Part shown: positions 7,907 through 22,002 of the stretch, piece by piece | Numbering within the stretch: position 1 is the stretch's first letter | How the letters are laid out: every line of letters begins with the position of its first letter | Source: an uncultured Candidatus Saccharibacteria bacterium | GTDB taxonomy: Bacteria; Patescibacteriota; Saccharimonadia; UBA4664; CAYXHD01 | Direction of reading: 5' to 3' | NCBI GenBank assembly: GCA_964410005.1 | Contig: CAYPFI010000001.1 | Coordinates: forward strand, 1-30,537 | DNA: 30,537 nucleotides | Program-made: the position numbers and the translations under genes | Notes under the pieces: generated by a model | Database searches by the model: none | Seen by the model: the letters and a program-made list of their open reading frames with translations, nothing else | Told to the model about the DNA's origin: nothing

Positions 7907-9484
7907 CTAGAAATCGAGTACGTGCTCAACTTCTTCTAGTGTAGTCTGCCCATTAAGGACTTTTAAGATGCCATCCTGTACAAGCGTGACCATACCCGAG
8001 GCGACAGCTACTTCTTCAATCTGATCAGCTGTGATCTGATCGGTTCCGCTCAAAAGAACTTCTAGTTCCTTAGTCATTACTAATTGCTCAACTACGGGCA
8101 CACGGTCACGGTACCCGAGGCCATTGCAGGCCGCACAGCCTTTACCCTGGAAGACCGTAGCGCTGTTGAGTCGGGCTTGGGTTTCCGCTGGCAGATTGCT
8201 GAGAGCTTTTTGAATTCGAGCCTTGGTAACGCTATCGAGCTCCACGGCTTGCTTACAGTTTTCACATACCTTACGAAGGAGACGCTGGGCATTGATGATC
8301 TTGAGGGAAGAGGCGAGTAGTGCGTTGTCGCCAGCCATATCGAGTAAGCGACTGATAGCCGTGGATGCAGAGCTAGCATGGAAGGTAGATAGCAGTAGGT
8401 GGCCGGTGAGCGAAGCCTGTAGGGCGGTTTTGGCGGTGTCCAGATCACGAATCTCGCCAATCATAATAGTGTTGGGGTCTTCACGCAAGACGGCTCGGAG
8501 TTTTTCGGCAAATAACTCCTTATCTTCGCTATGGATGGGGATTTGGGTGACACCAGGAAGATCATACTCAACAGGGTCTTCCAGGGTAATGACCTTAGTT
8601 TCTGGGGTGTTGAGTTCATTCACAATAGAGTAGAGTGCAGATGTCTTACCTGAGCCAGTAGGGCCAACAGCCAGTATCATGCCGTTGGGGCGATGAATAG
8701 CGGTCTTGAGGGTAGCGAGCTGCTGCTCAGAGAAGCCGCGATTGTCGATTCTGAGGAAGGTGGCCTCCATGCCAAAAATACGGACTACAATTTCTTCGCC
8801 GTGGAAGGAGGGGATGGTCTCGATACGCATGTTGACTGACTGCTTGGCGCCCTTGATGTCGACGAGATCAAAGCTGATACGACCGCTTTGTGGGTCATCT
8901 GAGCCCCATTTGATGTTGGCGCGGGTCTGGAGGTCAGCTAGGAAGATTTTATAGCTCTCAGTGTTTACTTCAGTAATAGGATGAAGCGTCCCGTCGATAC
9001 GGAAGCGAATACGAGCAGCAGCTTCTTGTGGCTCGATATGAATATCGCTGGAGCGCAGTAAGTGGGCTAGCTGAGCAATTAACTGGAAGGCTTGCTTGGG
9101 AGCGGTGGCGGCTAGGCGTGGGCCAAAGGCAGCAAAGTCGCCGTCGAGCTCCTTCTTGAAGCTACCTAGATACAGAGCATTAATAATATCTTGGTAACCA
9201 GCATCACTAATCGTTTTAAAGGTAACTTGGTGGCCTTCAAGTTTGGCGGCGATGGTCTGGAGCTGTGTCCGATCGGTGGCTGTCGTGATGCCCAACTCAA
9301 CCGCCTTAGTCTCTGGACCATATACCAGAGGGGCTATACGGTATTCGAGGAATTGTTCATAGGTAAGTAAGCCATCGAGTAGCGGATAGCTAGCTAGATC
9401 ACGAATATCCAGGTAGGGAGTACCACTACTTATGGCTAGCTGCTGAGCGGCTGCCTCGGATGCGGTACGCTGTTCATCGTTCAT
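7907..9484 (-). CDS. pilB: GspE/PulE/PilB-family type IV pilus assembly ATPase
   Basis: Walker A GPTGSGKT, Asp box TLEDPVEY, Walker B IMIGEIRD, His box GHLLLSTFH, tetracysteine CENC...CAAC, and RIRFRIDG motif. Start placed at MNDEQ (9484), 8 nt after TGcTATTAT. Confidence 0.9.
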   Translation of the reverse strand: MNDEQRTASEAAAQQLAISSGTPYLDIRDLASYPLLDGLLTYEQFLEYRIAPLVYGPETKAVELGITTATDRTQLQTIAAKLEGHQVTFKTISDAGYQDIINALYLGSFKKELDGDFAAFGPRLAATAPKQAFQLIAQLAHLLRSSDIHIEPQEAAARIRFRIDGTLHPITEVNTESYKIFLADLQTRANIKWGSDDPQSGRISFDLVDIKGAKQSVNMRIETIPSFHGEEIVVRIFGMEATFLRIDNRGFSEQQLATLKTAIHRPNGMILAVGPTGSGKTSALYSIVNELNTPETKVITLEDPVEYDLPGVTQIPIHSEDKELFAEKLRAVLREDPNTIMIGEIRDLDTAKTALQASLTGHLLLSTFHASSASTAISRLLDMAGDNALLASSLKIINAQRLLRKVCENCKQAVELDSVTKARIQKALSNLPAETQARLNSATVFQGKGCAACNGLGYRDRVPVVEQLVMTKELEVLLSGTDQITADQIEEVAVASGMVTLVQDGILKVLNGQTTLEEVEHVLDF

Positions 9485-9570
9485 ATATGACAATAATAGC
9501 ACTATGGGCCTCAAAATGCTTGTGTTCAGCTTTCCAGGATGCTTTAATGAGCTTAAGGTCTTATATCTCT

Positions 9571-17784: not shown

Positions 17785-20700
17785 GTGAAAAAATTGCGCA
17801 AAATAATTCGTCAAGAAGTCGCCACTCTGCCCCGACAGAGTATTGCAGCCATGAAGGTGGCTTTTGGCGTACGTGCACAATACGCCACTATCATGGCACT
17901 GGCCGTACTCATGGCCACGCAAATTGCTGGGGTCGCAATATTCTCTGGGAGAGCCGCCGCGGCCTTACCATCACTTAGCCTGGAGCTCGAGACGCGAGAA
18001 GTCAGTGATGTGAACGTTAGTTATCAAAATAGCGCCAATCTAAAATTTAATCTACACACAAATGACCTCCATAACCTCAAGGGTGCTGCTTATAGCTTTG
18101 AATATGGTAGTACTACGAGTTATGGTGAAGAGGCTAATGTCGAATCTACCCAAGTTGTCAGGGACTCAGAAATGTCATTCTCTGGCGGCCCAACCTATCA
18201 ATATGGGGGCTATGGCCAGACCAAGGACCATCAAGGAAATATCTATAAGATATACAACGGAAATCTCTACAAATATAATTCGGCGGGTCAGTACCTCTTA
18301 CAGGTGACGGCTACTCCTAATCATTTCCAGGGATCATCGCGCGCTGATTTAGTGTTTGATTCACAGGATAACCTCTATGTCGGGGGATTTGGCGGTGTTA
18401 TTGAGAAGTATTCGCCAAGTGGTAATCTACTGAACACCATAGGGTCGGCTACTTACATTCAGATTGCTACTGATCCGGATGATAATCTTTATGTGGTCGA
18501 ACAGCGGACGGTCAGTGGCTCGCTGGTTCATAAATACGATGCCGCGGGTGCGCTTGTGGATGAATTTGTGATGCCGATTGGTACCGCAGTTCTGTGTGGT
18601 GGAGATTTAGCGATAGACTCCGCCGGGAGCCTTTATGTGAGTATTTCTGATTGTGATTCCCAAACATCAGACTCGATTCAAAAACTCTCTTCAGATGGGA
18701 ACCTCACTGATACCTGGGCCATACCGGTTGCCGGTACATTATACATAGATGACAGTAATATTATTTATGTTCGTGGTCAGGCCACACTTACGACTGAGGG
18801 TGACCCAATCCCGTCACCGGCTACTTTGCCCCTAACTTCATATATGCTGGGCTACAATGTACTGCTTGATGTAGACACCGAACATGGCTTGGCCCATATG
18901 ATGAATCGCGACGAGAATGTGGTAATAACCTACGCTCGTACGGCTTCAGTCGAGGTAGGTAATCTTCAATGTGGTGAAACCTATCATTACCGAGCTAAGG
19001 CCGTTGCCGGAAGCGAGACGGTATACGGTGAAGATCAAGAGACTATCGTTCCTTGTAATCCCCTCAACATTCTAACCGGCTGGATTCCAGATGGTCCGCT
19101 CGGTGAGGCCTATGAGGCACAGATACAGACAAATGCTTCTGGTGGAACAACAACCTTTAGTATCGTTGATGGGCAACTTCCGCCCGGCCTTGATCTGGAC
19201 AGCAGCAGCGGCGCGATAACGGGAACCGCGATTGAGGCCGGCAGTTTTGAGTTCACGATTCGCGCAGAGAATGACGGCGCGAATACTCCGGGAATCGATG
19301 AACAAACATTATCCATGTATGTCACGGGGCAGAACTTGGATGTGGTTGATAGTAATAACAGTATGTATGTTGGGGACGCTTATACTAATCAGGTCCAGAC
19401 TACTGGCGGACTTGGGGGCGAGATCCAGTTTGGGAAAGATCCAAGTTCCAATGATGATTTCCCGCCCGGCATCACTATGAGTAGTACCGGCGCGATAACT
19501 GGCACGCCTACCCAGGCTGGGTCGTATGCTGTGCTCGTACGTGTCACGCAAGGGCCACTCACCGGCGTTGGTTATGTACAATTCCAGGTAGAGAACCCGA
19601 CTTATAATGAGATTAGTATCTCGGGTGGAGGGCTTAATGGTGCGCGAGTGGGCCGTGCTTATAGTGAGGACATGGGTTACTATACTGGTAATGGCTTTGG
19701 ACCAAAAACCTATGCTATTACAGCAGGTGAGTTGACGCCAGGGCTCGAGCTCAATCCGCTCACCGGTATCATTAGCGGGACACCTGTGACGGCGGGAACG
19801 TATGAATTTACCCTGGAAGTAACCGATATCACAGGTAGTGCGAGTGGTGAGTTTACTATGCCGGTCGCGCCGACGGTTGTTCAGGGTACCAATACGCCTA
19901 TTGTTACGATTACCTCGCCAGCCGATAGTACTCAGTTTGATGCCGACCATGATAGTGTTGTCGTCACCGGTACCGGCCCGGCTGGCCAGTCGATTGTGGT
20001 ATCGATGGATGGCTATGAGCTAGGAACTGCCTCTGTTAACGACGGCGGCACCTGGAGCTATACGGTGGATGATATATTCCCGGGAGATCATAGTTTTGAG
20101 GCTAAATATGTGCCAGTTGGTGATCTTGCGGTATTGGGAAGCCTTGTGGACGGTGATATGACTGCTGAAAATGGTAAAGTCACAATTATCGATATGGGTA
20201 CCGGCAAAAGGATCCAGTCCATCTCACTCCCGCCATACTCATTTGTGTATGTATCGGCCATCAATGAGGCCGGCACCAAGGCCTATGTGGCTGGTGGACG
20301 ACTCAACTTAGACGAGGTCGGAGATGGTGCTGTCTCTACGCCATTCTTGTATGAAATTGATCTTGGAACTGGCATGTTGGGTCGCACTTTGGACATGTCG
20401 TCAATTGGCCCCGATCACACCGTTAGTGCCCTTACGCTTATTAATGATCATACAGCGTATATCGAGTATGGACGTAGCTATTTAGAGTCAGCCATCACAT
20501 CGGTGAATCTGGATACCATGACACTTGGCAGCTCCGTAGGTCTTCCCCTAAGCAATGATTACACGGTAAGTAATAATCCCCGAGGTCGAAATATATCGCT
20601 GGTCGAAGCCAATGGCCGAATATACAGCTCATTATCCACACAGGATGATGATGACTTGCAAACCGCTACGGTTATTAATCGATCAGATAACTCAATGCAT

Positions 20701-21915
20701 AGCATTACAATTCTCAATGACCCGTTATGGTATAACTGCGCAACTGAAGTTATTAAGTCCGGTAACGATGTTTATTATGTGGCCAATGATAAGATCGTTA
20801 AAATGAACACTACTAACGGCACTGTCGCGAGCACTATTACCATGGGCAGCACCTTGCAGAGTACTCAGATGTGTGTGAGGTCGCTCCAGATAGATGCGGC
20901 CCATAATAAAGCCTACGTGCTCGCCAACGGTGTGTTGTTTACGGTGGACTTATCGAGCGGGGCGACTACCAAGGTTCAGGATCAGGTCGGGTCTCTGTAT
21001 ATCAATGCTTGGGTGGATACGTACATTGATTGGATGAAGCAGCTGCAGCCTAACCAAGAAATAACTGATGAGCTGAGGCAAATGTTCTTTGACCAGCTAA
21101 GTAATAGTTTGCCAACATCGCTTCCGTATCAACAAAGTAATCTCATGTCACTTAACAGTGATGCCAGTATGCTTCATATTTTCTGGATGACAGGTATTAT
21201 CAGTAATTTTAACACCGTTACTTCTCAATATGTTCAATCTACACAGAGTTACTATGGCTACGCTGGATATAGCATACAGTCTGGCGCTCAGCGCTTGGTC
21301 GCGCCGGCTACCGTTTCGCCTTCAGCTTCAGTTTCGTTTTCAGTAGAGGAGGGTGAAATTGTGGAACCGGGCTGCGTTGATGATTCGTGCGAACCGGTTG
21401 ATCCCGATTGTCTTGAATCATGTGAGCCAGAAGAGCCTGGTGAGCCAGAGTTGCCAGGAGCTATTGTGCCGCAGTTGACTCCTAAGCCTGTTGTCGCAAC
21501 CACGCCCATCAAAGGATCTCCGGCGGTTGTGGCTGTTCAGAACTCACTCTTGGCGCTCGTGGCTCGCATTCCCGAACCACTGGCTGTCGGCTTGCCATGG
21601 CTCCTGTTGTCGCTGGCTCTCATCCTGGTTTCATCCCAGTATTATCAGGTCCTTGCTGAATCGGCTGGAACCAAGAAAATGCAGGATCGCGTCGATCATC
21701 AAAGGCGACTTGTAGAAGAACAGAATAACTTTGTGGCTCTTTCGACTCACTATCTGCACACGCCACTCACCGTTATGGAGGGGGAAATTAGCTTGATGGT
21801 TAAAGCTGGAACACTAACTCAGGCCCAGGCAACTAAGCTGCGAGCAACGCTTACTAGTCTAGCTGCCGAAGCTGAGGCCGTACTCGCACGAGAAGAGCAG
21901 AATAAGGTAGAATAG
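17785..21915 (+). CDS. Large membrane-anchored surface protein (1376 aa): FN3-like domain, NHL-like propeller, three He_PIG-like Ig repeats, Big-like domain, second propeller, TM helix, cytoplasmic coiled coil and HisKA-like helix
   Basis: FEYGSTTSYG...TYHYRA; FDSQDNLYVG/TDPDDNLYV/IDSAGSLYV repeats; LPPGLDL..GAITGT, FPPGITM..GAITGTP, LTPGLEL..GIISGTP; PIVTITSP..GTWSY; TM LPWLLLSLALILV; NNFVALSTHYLHTPLT. Confidence 0.85.
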   Translation: MKKLRKIIRQEVATLPRQSIAAMKVAFGVRAQYATIMALAVLMATQIAGVAIFSGRAAAALPSLSLELETREVSDVNVSYQNSANLKFNLHTNDLHNLKGAAYSFEYGSTTSYGEEANVESTQVVRDSEMSFSGGPTYQYGGYGQTKDHQGNIYKIYNGNLYKYNSAGQYLLQVTATPNHFQGSSRADLVFDSQDNLYVGGFGGVIEKYSPSGNLLNTIGSATYIQIATDPDDNLYVVEQRTVSGSLVHKYDAAGALVDEFVMPIGTAVLCGGDLAIDSAGSLYVSISDCDSQTSDSIQKLSSDGNLTDTWAIPVAGTLYIDDSNIIYVRGQATLTTEGDPIPSPATLPLTSYMLGYNVLLDVDTEHGLAHMMNRDENVVITYARTASVEVGNLQCGETYHYRAKAVAGSETVYGEDQETIVPCNPLNILTGWIPDGPLGEAYEAQIQTNASGGTTTFSIVDGQLPPGLDLDSSSGAITGTAIEAGSFEFTIRAENDGANTPGIDEQTLSMYVTGQNLDVVDSNNSMYVGDAYTNQVQTTGGLGGEIQFGKDPSSNDDFPPGITMSSTGAITGTPTQAGSYAVLVRVTQGPLTGVGYVQFQVENPTYNEISISGGGLNGARVGRAYSEDMGYYTGNGFGPKTYAITAGELTPGLELNPLTGIISGTPVTAGTYEFTLEVTDITGSASGEFTMPVAPTVVQGTNTPIVTITSPADSTQFDADHDSVVVTGTGPAGQSIVVSMDGYELGTASVNDGGTWSYTVDDIFPGDHSFEAKYVPVGDLAVLGSLVDGDMTAENGKVTIIDMGTGKRIQSISLPPYSFVYVSAINEAGTKAYVAGGRLNLDEVGDGAVSTPFLYEIDLGTGMLGRTLDMSSIGPDHTVSALTLINDHTAYIEYGRSYLESAITSVNLDTMTLGSSVGLPLSNDYTVSNNPRGRNISLVEANGRIYSSLSTQDDDDLQTATVINRSDNSMHSITILNDPLWYNCATEVIKSGNDVYYVANDKIVKMNTTNGTVASTITMGSTLQSTQMCVRSLQIDAAHNKAYVLANGVLFTVDLSSGATTKVQDQVGSLYINAWVDTYIDWMKQLQPNQEITDELRQMFFDQLSNSLPTSLPYQQSNLMSLNSDASMLHIFWMTGIISNFNTVTSQYVQSTQSYYGYAGYSIQSGAQRLVAPATVSPSASVSFSVEEGEIVEPGCVDDSCEPVDPDCLESCEPEEPGEPELPGAIVPQLTPKPVVATTPIKGSPAVVAVQNSLLALVARIPEPLAVGLPWLLLSLALILVSSQYYQVLAESAGTKKMQDRVDHQRRLVEEQNNFVALSTHYLHTPLTVMEGEISLMVKAGTLTQAQATKLRATLTSLAAEAEAVLAREEQNKVE

Positions 21916-21926
21916 GAAGCGCACGT

Positions 21927-22002
21927 CAGGGTGTAGCGCAGTTGGTAGCGCGCAGCGTTCGGGACGCTGAGGTCGGAGGTTCAAGTCCTCTCACCCTGAC
22001 CA
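21927..22002 (+). tRNA. tRNA-Pro (anticodon CGG)
   Basis: Acceptor CAGGGTG/CACCCTG (C1-G72, A73), anticodon stem CAGCG/CGCTG with loop TT-CGG-GA, TTCAAGT T-loop, encoded CCA; 76 nt. Confidence 0.97.

Follow-up and report, generated by a model that had tools for sequence, protein, structure and literature searches.

The DNA stretch analysed here, referred to as the window, is an entire 30.5-kb contig (30,537 nucleotides) from an uncultured Candidatus Saccharibacteria bacterium and carries the gene of a giant surface protein that ends in a helical hairpin of the histidine kinase type. The open reading frame (ORF) starts with a GTG codon, its stop codon occupies positions 21913-21915 and a gap of 11 nt separates it from a gene for tRNA-Pro(CGG). 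The last 128 residues of the protein (1249-1376), here termed the tail, comprise a short outer helix, a transmembrane (TM) helix, a connector helix and a two-helix hairpin resembling the dimerisation and phosphotransfer (HisKA/DHp) domain of histidine kinases (Table 1). A previous interpretation made from the letters alone (the sequence-only reading) had described this ORF and tail accurately: the strings it quoted, LPWLLLSLALILVSSQYYQVL, KKMQDRVDHQRRLVEEQNN and FVALSTHYLHTPLTVMEGEISLM, correspond to residues 1270-1290, 1297-1315 and 1316-1338, respectively, and the protein terminates 48 aa past TPL and 38 aa past "...SLM", close to the 45 aa or so that it had given, directly ahead of the tRNA. 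The stretch that it had called a coiled coil is predicted by AlphaFold2 (AF2) solely as a section of one continuous helix.

Table 1 Features of the tail-bearing gene and of its immediate downstream neighbour in the window
Feature	Position	Strand	Basis
Whole gene; 1376-aa type-I-like surface protein with TM helix and DHp-only tail at its end	17785..21915	+	ORF list
N-terminal 60 aa; basic KKLRKxxRQxVxTLPxQSLxAMKVAFGxRAQY, then hydrophobic stretch to ...IFSGRAAA	17785..17964	+	conserved in family
Immunoglobulin (Ig)-like ectodomain repeats; He_PIG x3 (best residues 439-499) and Big_6/Ca-tandemer-like (residues 712-762)	19099..20070	+	Pfam, NCBIfam
Outer juxtamembrane helix and R-I-P-E-P kink, residues 1249-1265	21529..21579	+	alignments A1, A3; AF2
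TM helix LAVGLPWLLLSLALILVSSQYYQV, residues 1266-1289	21580..21651	+	sequence; inside continuous AF2 helix; conserved in A1
Cytoplasmic connector helix, residues 1290-1315 (the "coiled coil" of the sequence-only reading)	21652..21729	+	AF2; aligns with HK853 pre-H-box helix
DHp helix alpha-1 with H-box FVALSTHYLHTPLTVMEGE, residues 1316-1341	21730..21807	+	invariant in A1; weak HisKA, PhoR and PorY matches
His1322 codon, predicted phospho-acceptor	21748..21750	+	His invariant in A1, A2, A3
Hairpin turn G-T-L-T, residues 1342-1345	21808..21819	+	non-helical in AF2; Gly and Thr invariant in A1
DHp helix alpha-2 (residues 1346-1375) and C-terminus	21820..21912	+	AF2; aligns to HK853 and EnvZ alpha-2
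tRNA-Pro(CGG), conserved neighbour marking the true gene end	21927..22002	+	ARAGORN

The tail-only ending is shared by the relatives of the window protein, which include an identical protein (P0002), an orthologue at 70% identity (P0003) and others. Among relatives whose ectodomains share 26-69% identity the tails are 66-91% identical, and the closest of these proteins, with ectodomains of 1218-2123 aa at 35-70% identity to the window protein, all terminate 48-49 aa past the H-box. An exhaustive search of 1.84 billion representative sequences with the full tail profile, which spans the juxtamembrane Pro, the TM helix, the connector and both hairpin helices, returned 335 matches. In 31 representatives of 398-2123 aa the tail lies at the extreme C-terminus (E<1e-30), and all of them stop 45-52 aa past the H-box. 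Three loci from unrelated samples (L003, L004 and L006) display the same gene order as the window, namely helicase-nuclease, SprT-like gene and tail gene, and in these four orthologous loci the stop codon is followed by the same tRNA-Pro. The window sequence is present in four bioreactor metagenome runs (X1-X4), and contigs from three of the four cross both the stop codon and the tRNA and show zero substitutions and zero indels. The ending is thus real at the position where the sequence-only reading had asked for a frameshift check. Between the window and L003, the closest pair, the non-synonymous divergence (pN) is 0.05 in the cytoplasmic tail vs 0.19 in the ectodomain, while synonymous sites of the tail are saturated across pairs (pS 0.64-0.98) and dN/dS is ~0.04 for the closest pair. 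Low pN combined with saturated synonymous sites indicates that purifying selection acting on the protein, and not recent gene conversion, maintains the tail. As judged from these comparisons, the absence of an ATPase domain is a conserved, selected state rather than damage.

Pfam scans of 18 ORFs found neither a HATPase_c nor a receiver domain in the window, and a phmmer search with the ATPase partner described below found no HATPase in any frame. Similarly, a receiver hidden Markov model (HMM), built from textbook receiver sequences, matched none of the stop-to-stop ORFs of at least 70 aa in the window. The earlier statement that the window holds no HATPase domain and no response regulator thus stands.

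Two profiles were used to relate the tail to known domains: a narrow tail profile (A1) and a profile of 37 sequences comprising tail-only and fused members (A3), in which the window tail is the first row. With the single tail sequence the best phmmer match in the PDB has an E of 1.4, and NCBIfam yields weak matches to the PhoR and PorY kinases at the same residues as the HisKA match (E ~1e-4). Scanned singly, 36 of the 37 family hairpins match HisKA (E<=0.1; best E 2.6e-8), and no other family is matched by more than eight of them. The A3 profile matches more than 30 solved kinase DHp domains across both helices, including HK853 (E 2e-6), EnvZ (E 1.6e-3), CpxA, WalK and DivL. The H-box FVALSTHYLHTPLT contains an invariant His, which A3 aligns on the His of the HK853 motif SHELRTPLT, the phospho-acceptor His260 of that kinase. 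The residue next to His1322 is Tyr in place of the canonical Glu/Asp, and this Tyr is near-invariant in both kinds of member, tail-only and fused (in A3 at least 90%, with few Phe or His). Ahead of the TM helix, Pro1263 is invariant throughout the family in alignments A1 and A3. Homology of the tail to HisKA/DHp holds transitively, via the family profile and the fused kinases described below.

The AF2 model of the window tail, computed with a 37-row alignment, has a predicted local distance difference test (pLDDT) score of 87 and displays an antiparallel two-helix hairpin, the outcome that the sequence-only reading had set beforehand as a test of its HisKA/DHp assignment. An outer helix at tail positions 2-12 is interrupted at I-P-E-P, and a single helix then runs unbroken from the TM segment to the H-box (positions 16-93). 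A four-residue turn (positions 94-97, GTLT) leads into a return helix of 30 residues (positions 98-127). Among the structures compared with Foldseek the CpxA DHp domain ranks first, with a probability of 0.97-0.99 and ~3 Å over 73-81 columns.

A second tier of matches in the exhaustive search (E 1e-18 to 1e-8) carries the full tail profile internally and continues for a very constant ~355 residues. These fused kinases (P0147, P0148, P0150 and the giant P0145, P0179 and P0184, among others) come from the same phylum and share with the window tail a homologous segment that begins at the juxtamembrane Pro and takes in both DHp helices, with E values down to 1e-18 and an SHY.xTP H-box. Unlike the window protein, they go on via two further TM helices (TM2-TM3) and a His-less hairpin into a HATPase_c domain (E 1e-16 to 1e-20). 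Their complete order is signal peptide, ectodomain, Pro juxtamembrane motif, TM1, connector, H-box hairpin, TM2-TM3, His-less hairpin and HATPase_c. The ectodomains vary widely in size, the smallest having one Ig domain and the largest over 1600 aa of NHL or He_PIG repeats. The first hairpin, with the H-box consensus F[IVL]xL[AS]SHY[LI][RNH]TP[LI], scores 20-27 bits against Pfam HisKA, P0148 exceeding the cut-off at 27.2, and its His (His237) is the only invariant His of the fused kinases. The AF2 model of P0147 (pLDDT 79) contains two hairpins parted by a TM hairpin and followed by an alpha/beta ATPase domain. Its C-terminal ~235 residues, which comprise the second hairpin and the ATPase domain, resemble classical DHp and catalytic ATP-binding (CA) cores (E ~1e-11, TM-score up to 0.77). 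HMMER cross-hits are the main basis for suggesting that the two hairpins are internal paralogues; the profile-profile match between tail and partner hairpins is weak (E 0.031, probability 1.6%), although in the right register.

The fused form occupies 55 reference-genome loci, nearly all of them in Candidatus Saccharibacteria or Saccharimonadia, and the tail-only form is found in one reference species and in metagenome contigs. The architecture is that of a family found across Saccharibacteria, in which fused and split forms both occur, and is not a one-off. The tail corresponds to the N-terminal half of such a fused kinase, whose gene has been split just after the first DHp hairpin in one clade. 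Except for L052, none of the fused kinases shares synteny with the pyruvate kinase locus of the split pairs, so that fission at a common locus could not be shown.

The other half is found as a separate gene. In the Saccharibacteria metagenome-assembled genome of L001 a 642-aa DUF285 protein carries the tail, and the next gene begins 17 nt before its stop codon. It encodes a 306-aa protein, the partner, that combines a pair of TM helices and a helical hairpin with a HATPase_c domain (E 6e-24) and has no HisKA match. Tail genes are overlapped by 4-17 nt by such a HATPase_c-only gene in eight loci (L001, L002, L005 and L007-L011), with the order tail gene(s), overlapping partner, pyruvate kinase, PGK/TIM and PcrA. 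The 34 clusters of the partner family are 63-100% identical to the L001 partner and, save for one truncated member, 305-351 aa long. They carry HATPase_c only; nearly all ordinary kinases lower in the same match list have HisKA too. No variation is seen in the N, G1, F and G2 boxes of the partners, and in their H-box-like helix RSAFxYxxS-x-xL the position of the His is taken by a variable Ser, Asp, Glu or Asn. The family thus contains a separate His-less ATPase subunit that is linked to the gene of the acceptor. This membrane protein of 305-351 aa is the other half of the fissioned kinase. An apparently active ATPase that lacks its own acceptor is tied, either fused or translationally coupled, to a hairpin whose acceptor-type His is invariant, and this link forms the core of the case for the tail as its probable phospho-acceptor. 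The sequence-only reading had considered heterodimerisation with a true kinase; a separate ATPase subunit, coupled to tail genes in eight loci, does exist, but it has no acceptor His and is therefore not a true kinase.

Proteins that carry the same tail under different ectodomains (NHL, He_PIG and DUF285), which the sequence-only reading had proposed to look for, are thus present in the family. At the conserved locus running from a trehalase gene to the partner and pyruvate kinase genes, the ectodomain encoded upstream of the partner varies by genome among DUF285, NHL and He_PIG types. At L007 (1305-10017) a tandem of two tail genes is accompanied by the gene of a third giant protein, which is cut off by the end of the locus. 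Compared with L001, L002, L005, L008 and L010, this arrangement looks as if ectodomains were turned over as cassettes flanked by a conserved N-terminus and the conserved tail.

A third class of giant Saccharimonadia surface proteins (L067 2488-7623; P0165, P0169, P0172, P0180, P0182, P0201 and P0254) ends 15-20 aa past the H-box and retains the TM helix, the connector and helix 1 with no return helix. Downstream of the L067 gene lie HIT, UppP and RNase H genes, and no ATPase partner is found nearby.

A partner gene was also sought in the samples that hold the window. When the L001 partner was matched at 80% likeness against the contigs of the four window-bearing runs, all four were found to hold a contig that matches part of this gene. 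Outside the alignment the flanks of this contig read NKTAELRELL and TSSTRVDAA vs KKTAELRDLL...TSTVTVDA in the partner. The depth of the partner-like contig in the four runs is 8.8/7.1/6.8/6.4 vs 8.8/7.1/9.2-7.2/5.5 for the window. The window copy itself is an unlinked paralogue at the locus defined by the helicase, SprT-like and tRNA-Pro genes. Searching the runs with the window tail at 80% likeness retrieved no paralogous tails, as expected from the saturation of its synonymous sites; a scan of metagenome contigs with tail patterns gave no match, and a word-indexed homologue search with the tail returned one truncated relative only.

On balance, the surface protein of the window probably serves as sensor and phospho-acceptor in a HisKA-type kinase, specific to Saccharibacteria, that is naturally split into two subunits. 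The comparisons above show the homology and architecture, the fission, the linkage of the genes at related loci and the purifying selection; from these we infer a physical association of the subunits, trans-phosphorylation, a signal and an output. In this scheme the large ectodomain of Ig-like and other repeats would lie outside the cell, and one TM helix would run unbroken into the connector and the hairpin that bears His1322. The tail and partner subunits would associate in the membrane, where His1322 would be phosphorylated in trans by the ATPase domain of the partner. Binding of a ligand or of the host surface by the ectodomain could then modulate phosphorylation through the continuous helix from the TM segment to the H-box, and the phosphoryl group would be passed on to a response regulator encoded elsewhere. 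Since several ectodomain variants carry the same tail, paralogous surface proteins with differing ectodomains probably share one catalytic subunit.

Several observations weigh against this interpretation. Scanned as a single sequence, the window tail reaches 15.0-15.2 bits (E 0.026) against Pfam HisKA (PF00512), below the gathering cut-off of 26.9; the HisKA assignment proposed by the sequence-only reading is thus borne out by the hairpins of the family and not by the window sequence taken alone. The best Foldseek E for the isolated tail (0.16) is non-significant, since a hairpin is too simple a fold for a fold search to decide. The canonical Glu/Asp after the His serves in HisKA catalysis, and with Tyr at this position the chemistry may differ. 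Loci of the window's type have no adjacent partner gene. The partner-like contigs are consistent with a partner gene elsewhere in the window's genome, to which they are linked by matching depth only. A receiver domain, as detected with the same receiver HMM, occurs within 8 kb in two of the ~50 Saccharibacteria kinase loci and is adjacent in none. The sole reference genome with a tail-only gene (L001) showed one such gene, and an arrangement of many sensors served by one kinase has the tandem pair of L007 as its single-genome support.

A bolder version of the split-kinase reading, held tentatively and at somewhat less than even probability, is a plug-in receptor kinase. Here a single catalytic membrane subunit would serve interchangeable giant surface proteins, each of which would bring its own ectodomain and the sole acceptor His. 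If so, trans-phosphorylation between different membrane polypeptides would be the normal mode of action, host-contact sensors could be swapped or added by exchanging ectodomains between the conserved N-terminus and the tail, and an epibiont with a tiny genome would gain combinatorial sensing of host surfaces.

The main rival to the split-kinase reading holds that the tail is a non-catalytic hairpin for dimerisation, clustering or anchoring, or a regulatory decoy that stays unphosphorylated while bound to the ATPase subunit or to DHp domains of other proteins, in the manner of RetS-GacS or of pseudokinases like DivL. It is considered unlikely. The His-Tyr pair instead of His-Glu, the lack of a response regulator nearby and the window copy that is unlinked to any ATPase gene would all fit such a role. 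So would the third class of surface proteins, whose H-box helix is kept with neither return helix nor nearby partner, which suggests that this helix can have a role beyond the canonical four-helix bundle. However, the residues conserved in the tail are those of phosphotransfer chemistry (F..L.[ST]H...TPLT) and not a mere hydrophobic heptad, the partner, in which every ATP-binding motif is invariant but the His is missing, needs an acceptor, and tail and partner are translationally coupled in eight loci.

Less probable still, and held to be improbable, is a stand-alone phosphotransfer module of the histidine phosphotransfer (HPt) or Spo0B-like type, or a HisKA phosphatase module, which would act independently of the 305-351 aa ATPase protein. 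The tail keeps Thr at His+4, the T/N position of the phosphatase motif H-E/D-x-x-T/N, although the acidic residue of this motif is replaced by Tyr. HisKA proteins with no HATPase do exist, and about half of them retain the phosphatase motif (PMC3591291). The gene linkage and the fused ancestors nevertheless point specifically at the ATPase partner, and no cognate regulator was found near the loci searched.

Two further assignments of the tail are effectively refuted. A LuxR/GerE-type helix-turn-helix (HTH) domain was suggested by the A1 profile, whose best PDB matches are LuxR-type HTH domains (E 0.08-0.1). With the A3 profile this match drops to E 0.33 while kinases reach 2e-6, and the model, an extended hairpin of two helices, lacks the compact form of an HTH; the would-be recognition helix is, moreover, acidic. 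The I-P-E-P motif ahead of the TM helix similarly recalls a PEP-CTERM-like sorting signal. A PEP-CTERM signal ends in a short basic tail, but here the TM helix is succeeded by a conserved cytoplasmic domain of 86 aa, and in the wider family "PEP" is not conserved, the first Pro alone being invariant. Finally, the view that the gene is a kinase pseudogene cut short, or that its end at ~21915 reflects an assembly error or a frameshift, is refuted: distant homologues do run on for ~355 residues into HATPase, which is one half of what the sequence-only reading had said would overturn its interpretation, but truncation by mutation or assembly error, the other half, is contradicted by the end point common to 31 representatives, the stop and tRNA-Pro common to four loci, the junction crossed unchanged by contigs of three runs, the strong purifying selection on the tail (dN/dS ~0.04) and the lack of any HATPase-coding remnant in any frame of the window.

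The family displays both similarities to and differences from characterised systems. Canonical HisKA kinases (HK853, EnvZ, CpxA and WalK/YycG) share with the window tail the succession of TM helix, connector and two-helix DHp hairpin, as well as an H-box of the form F..(S/T)H.L.TPLT in which the His aligns on the phospho-acceptor, and they share with the fused relatives the classical fold of the DHp and CA core. In contrast, the window protein has no CA domain, so that the HATPase_c C-terminal to the DHp in the same polypeptide that marks a complete kinase is absent; it also has His-Tyr for His-Glu and an ectodomain of ~1200 aa. The fused relatives differ from canonical kinases by the two TM helices and the His-less hairpin inserted between the His hairpin and the CA domain.

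DivL is a His-less kinase-like protein, and RetS-GacS is an example of regulation by heteromeric DHp contacts. Like DivL, which is among the fold matches, the partner has a DHp-like hairpin that lacks the acceptor His. Unlike DivL- and RetS-type proteins, all of its catalytic ATP-binding motifs are invariant, and it looks like an active ATPase that lacks a substrate His rather than a scaffold.

Phospho-acceptor and ATP-binding domain also reside on separate proteins in CheA3/CheA4 of Rhodobacter sphaeroides, a biochemically characterised pair that jointly forms one kinase and of which neither member autophosphorylates alone (PMC3591291). Unlike the system described here, CheA3/CheA4 belongs to the CheA class, has an HPt-type P1 acceptor, is cytoplasmic and is not fused to a surface protein, and its function was shown biochemically and not inferred. 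The HisKA and HATPase domains of EnvZ can also keep activity on separate polypeptides (cited in PMC3591291). That split is artificial, made in vitro and with soluble fragments, whereas the split described here is natural, both halves are membrane proteins and the ATPase half has a degenerate hairpin of its own. HisKA proteins with no HATPase amount to 3.66% of those in SMART, and split kinases are predicted to respond in a switch-like manner (PMC3591291). Both split kinases and HisKA-only proteins are thus already known, the former as a rare class. A 2026 preprint on HATPase-only proteins, for which it presents new HisKA-like profiles, makes no mention of Patescibacteria. A literature search found no description of the present family and none that links Saccharibacteria surface proteins to kinase tails.

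Host recognition and contact signalling in Saccharibacteria are largely unknown, and published work centres on type IV pili. These organisms live attached to other bacteria, and the tail family is a concrete candidate for a host-contact sensor: the window protein may let this Saccharibacteria parasite sense contact with other bacteria. The family is of interest for where it is found, namely on giant and variable surface proteins of a bacterium that is an obligate epibiont, and it ties very large, fast-evolving surface proteins directly to histidine kinase chemistry. Its form is unusual: membrane helices stand between the acceptor hairpin and the ATPase in the fused proteins, and a gene boundary does so in the split ones. 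If the split-kinase reading is correct, the family would provide a natural split kinase of the HisKA class with membrane-bound halves; the characterised example in PMC3591291 is of the CheA class. The family also bears on annotation. Tails that score below threshold leave their proteins labelled only as Ig-domain or hypothetical, and the partners are labelled kinases despite having no acceptor His.

The ectodomain of the window protein matches Pfam He_PIG with an E of 1.5e-24; the Big_6 (E 1.2e-4) and NCBIfam Ca_tandemer (E 6e-6) matches are both below cut-off, and no relatives of solved structure were found by sequence for the remainder. The N-terminal 60 aa are 53-73% identical to those of the orthologues at L002-L005 and constitute a predicted signal peptide or N-terminal anchor. 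The ~35 residues ahead of the hydrophobic segment (17785-17890) are conserved, being found also in P0003, P0004, P0006, P0007 and P0010, and form a stretch unusually long and conserved for the n-region of a signal peptide. This segment may be a lineage-specific extended signal peptide or the cytoplasmic N-terminus ahead of an uncleaved first TM helix.

The remaining genes of the window encode an L,D-transpeptidase, SmpB, ArgRS, TrpRS, PheRS, RmuC, a UvrD/PD-(D/E)XK helicase-nuclease and a SprT-like protein. A second giant protein of 2036 aa is encoded on the reverse strand (1561-7671) and carries fn3 repeats and regions similar to the N-terminal part of M26 IgA1 proteases, and no kinase tail. 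It adjoins a gene for a PilB-type T2SSE ATPase on the same strand (7907-9514), which indicates a type IV pilus context. ARAGORN also called a tRNA-Gly (anticodon ACC, 85 nt) at 922-1006.

Among the related loci, the PcrA/UvrD helicase gene downstream of the partner in L010 (7835-11041) contains an intein (PF14890), and those of L007, L008 and L009 have none. Two fused kinases of typical Saccharibacteria type lie in bins labelled Nevskiaceae (L013) and Babeliales (L053); wrong binning or a wrong label is the probable cause.

In runs X3, X1 and X4 the Logan contigs break within the tail-coding region, at 21651-21679, 21784-21801 and 21876, possibly through branching of the assembly graph on words common to paralogous tails in the same community. 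A promoter and terminator scan gave results at chance level. The junction from the stop codon to tRNA-Pro (21913-22002), which is kept in four loci, contains no terminator-like site between gene and tRNA. With a conserved gap of 11 nt and no such site, the mRNA and tRNA-Pro are probably co-transcribed, and processing of tRNA-Pro would then define the 3' end of the mRNA.

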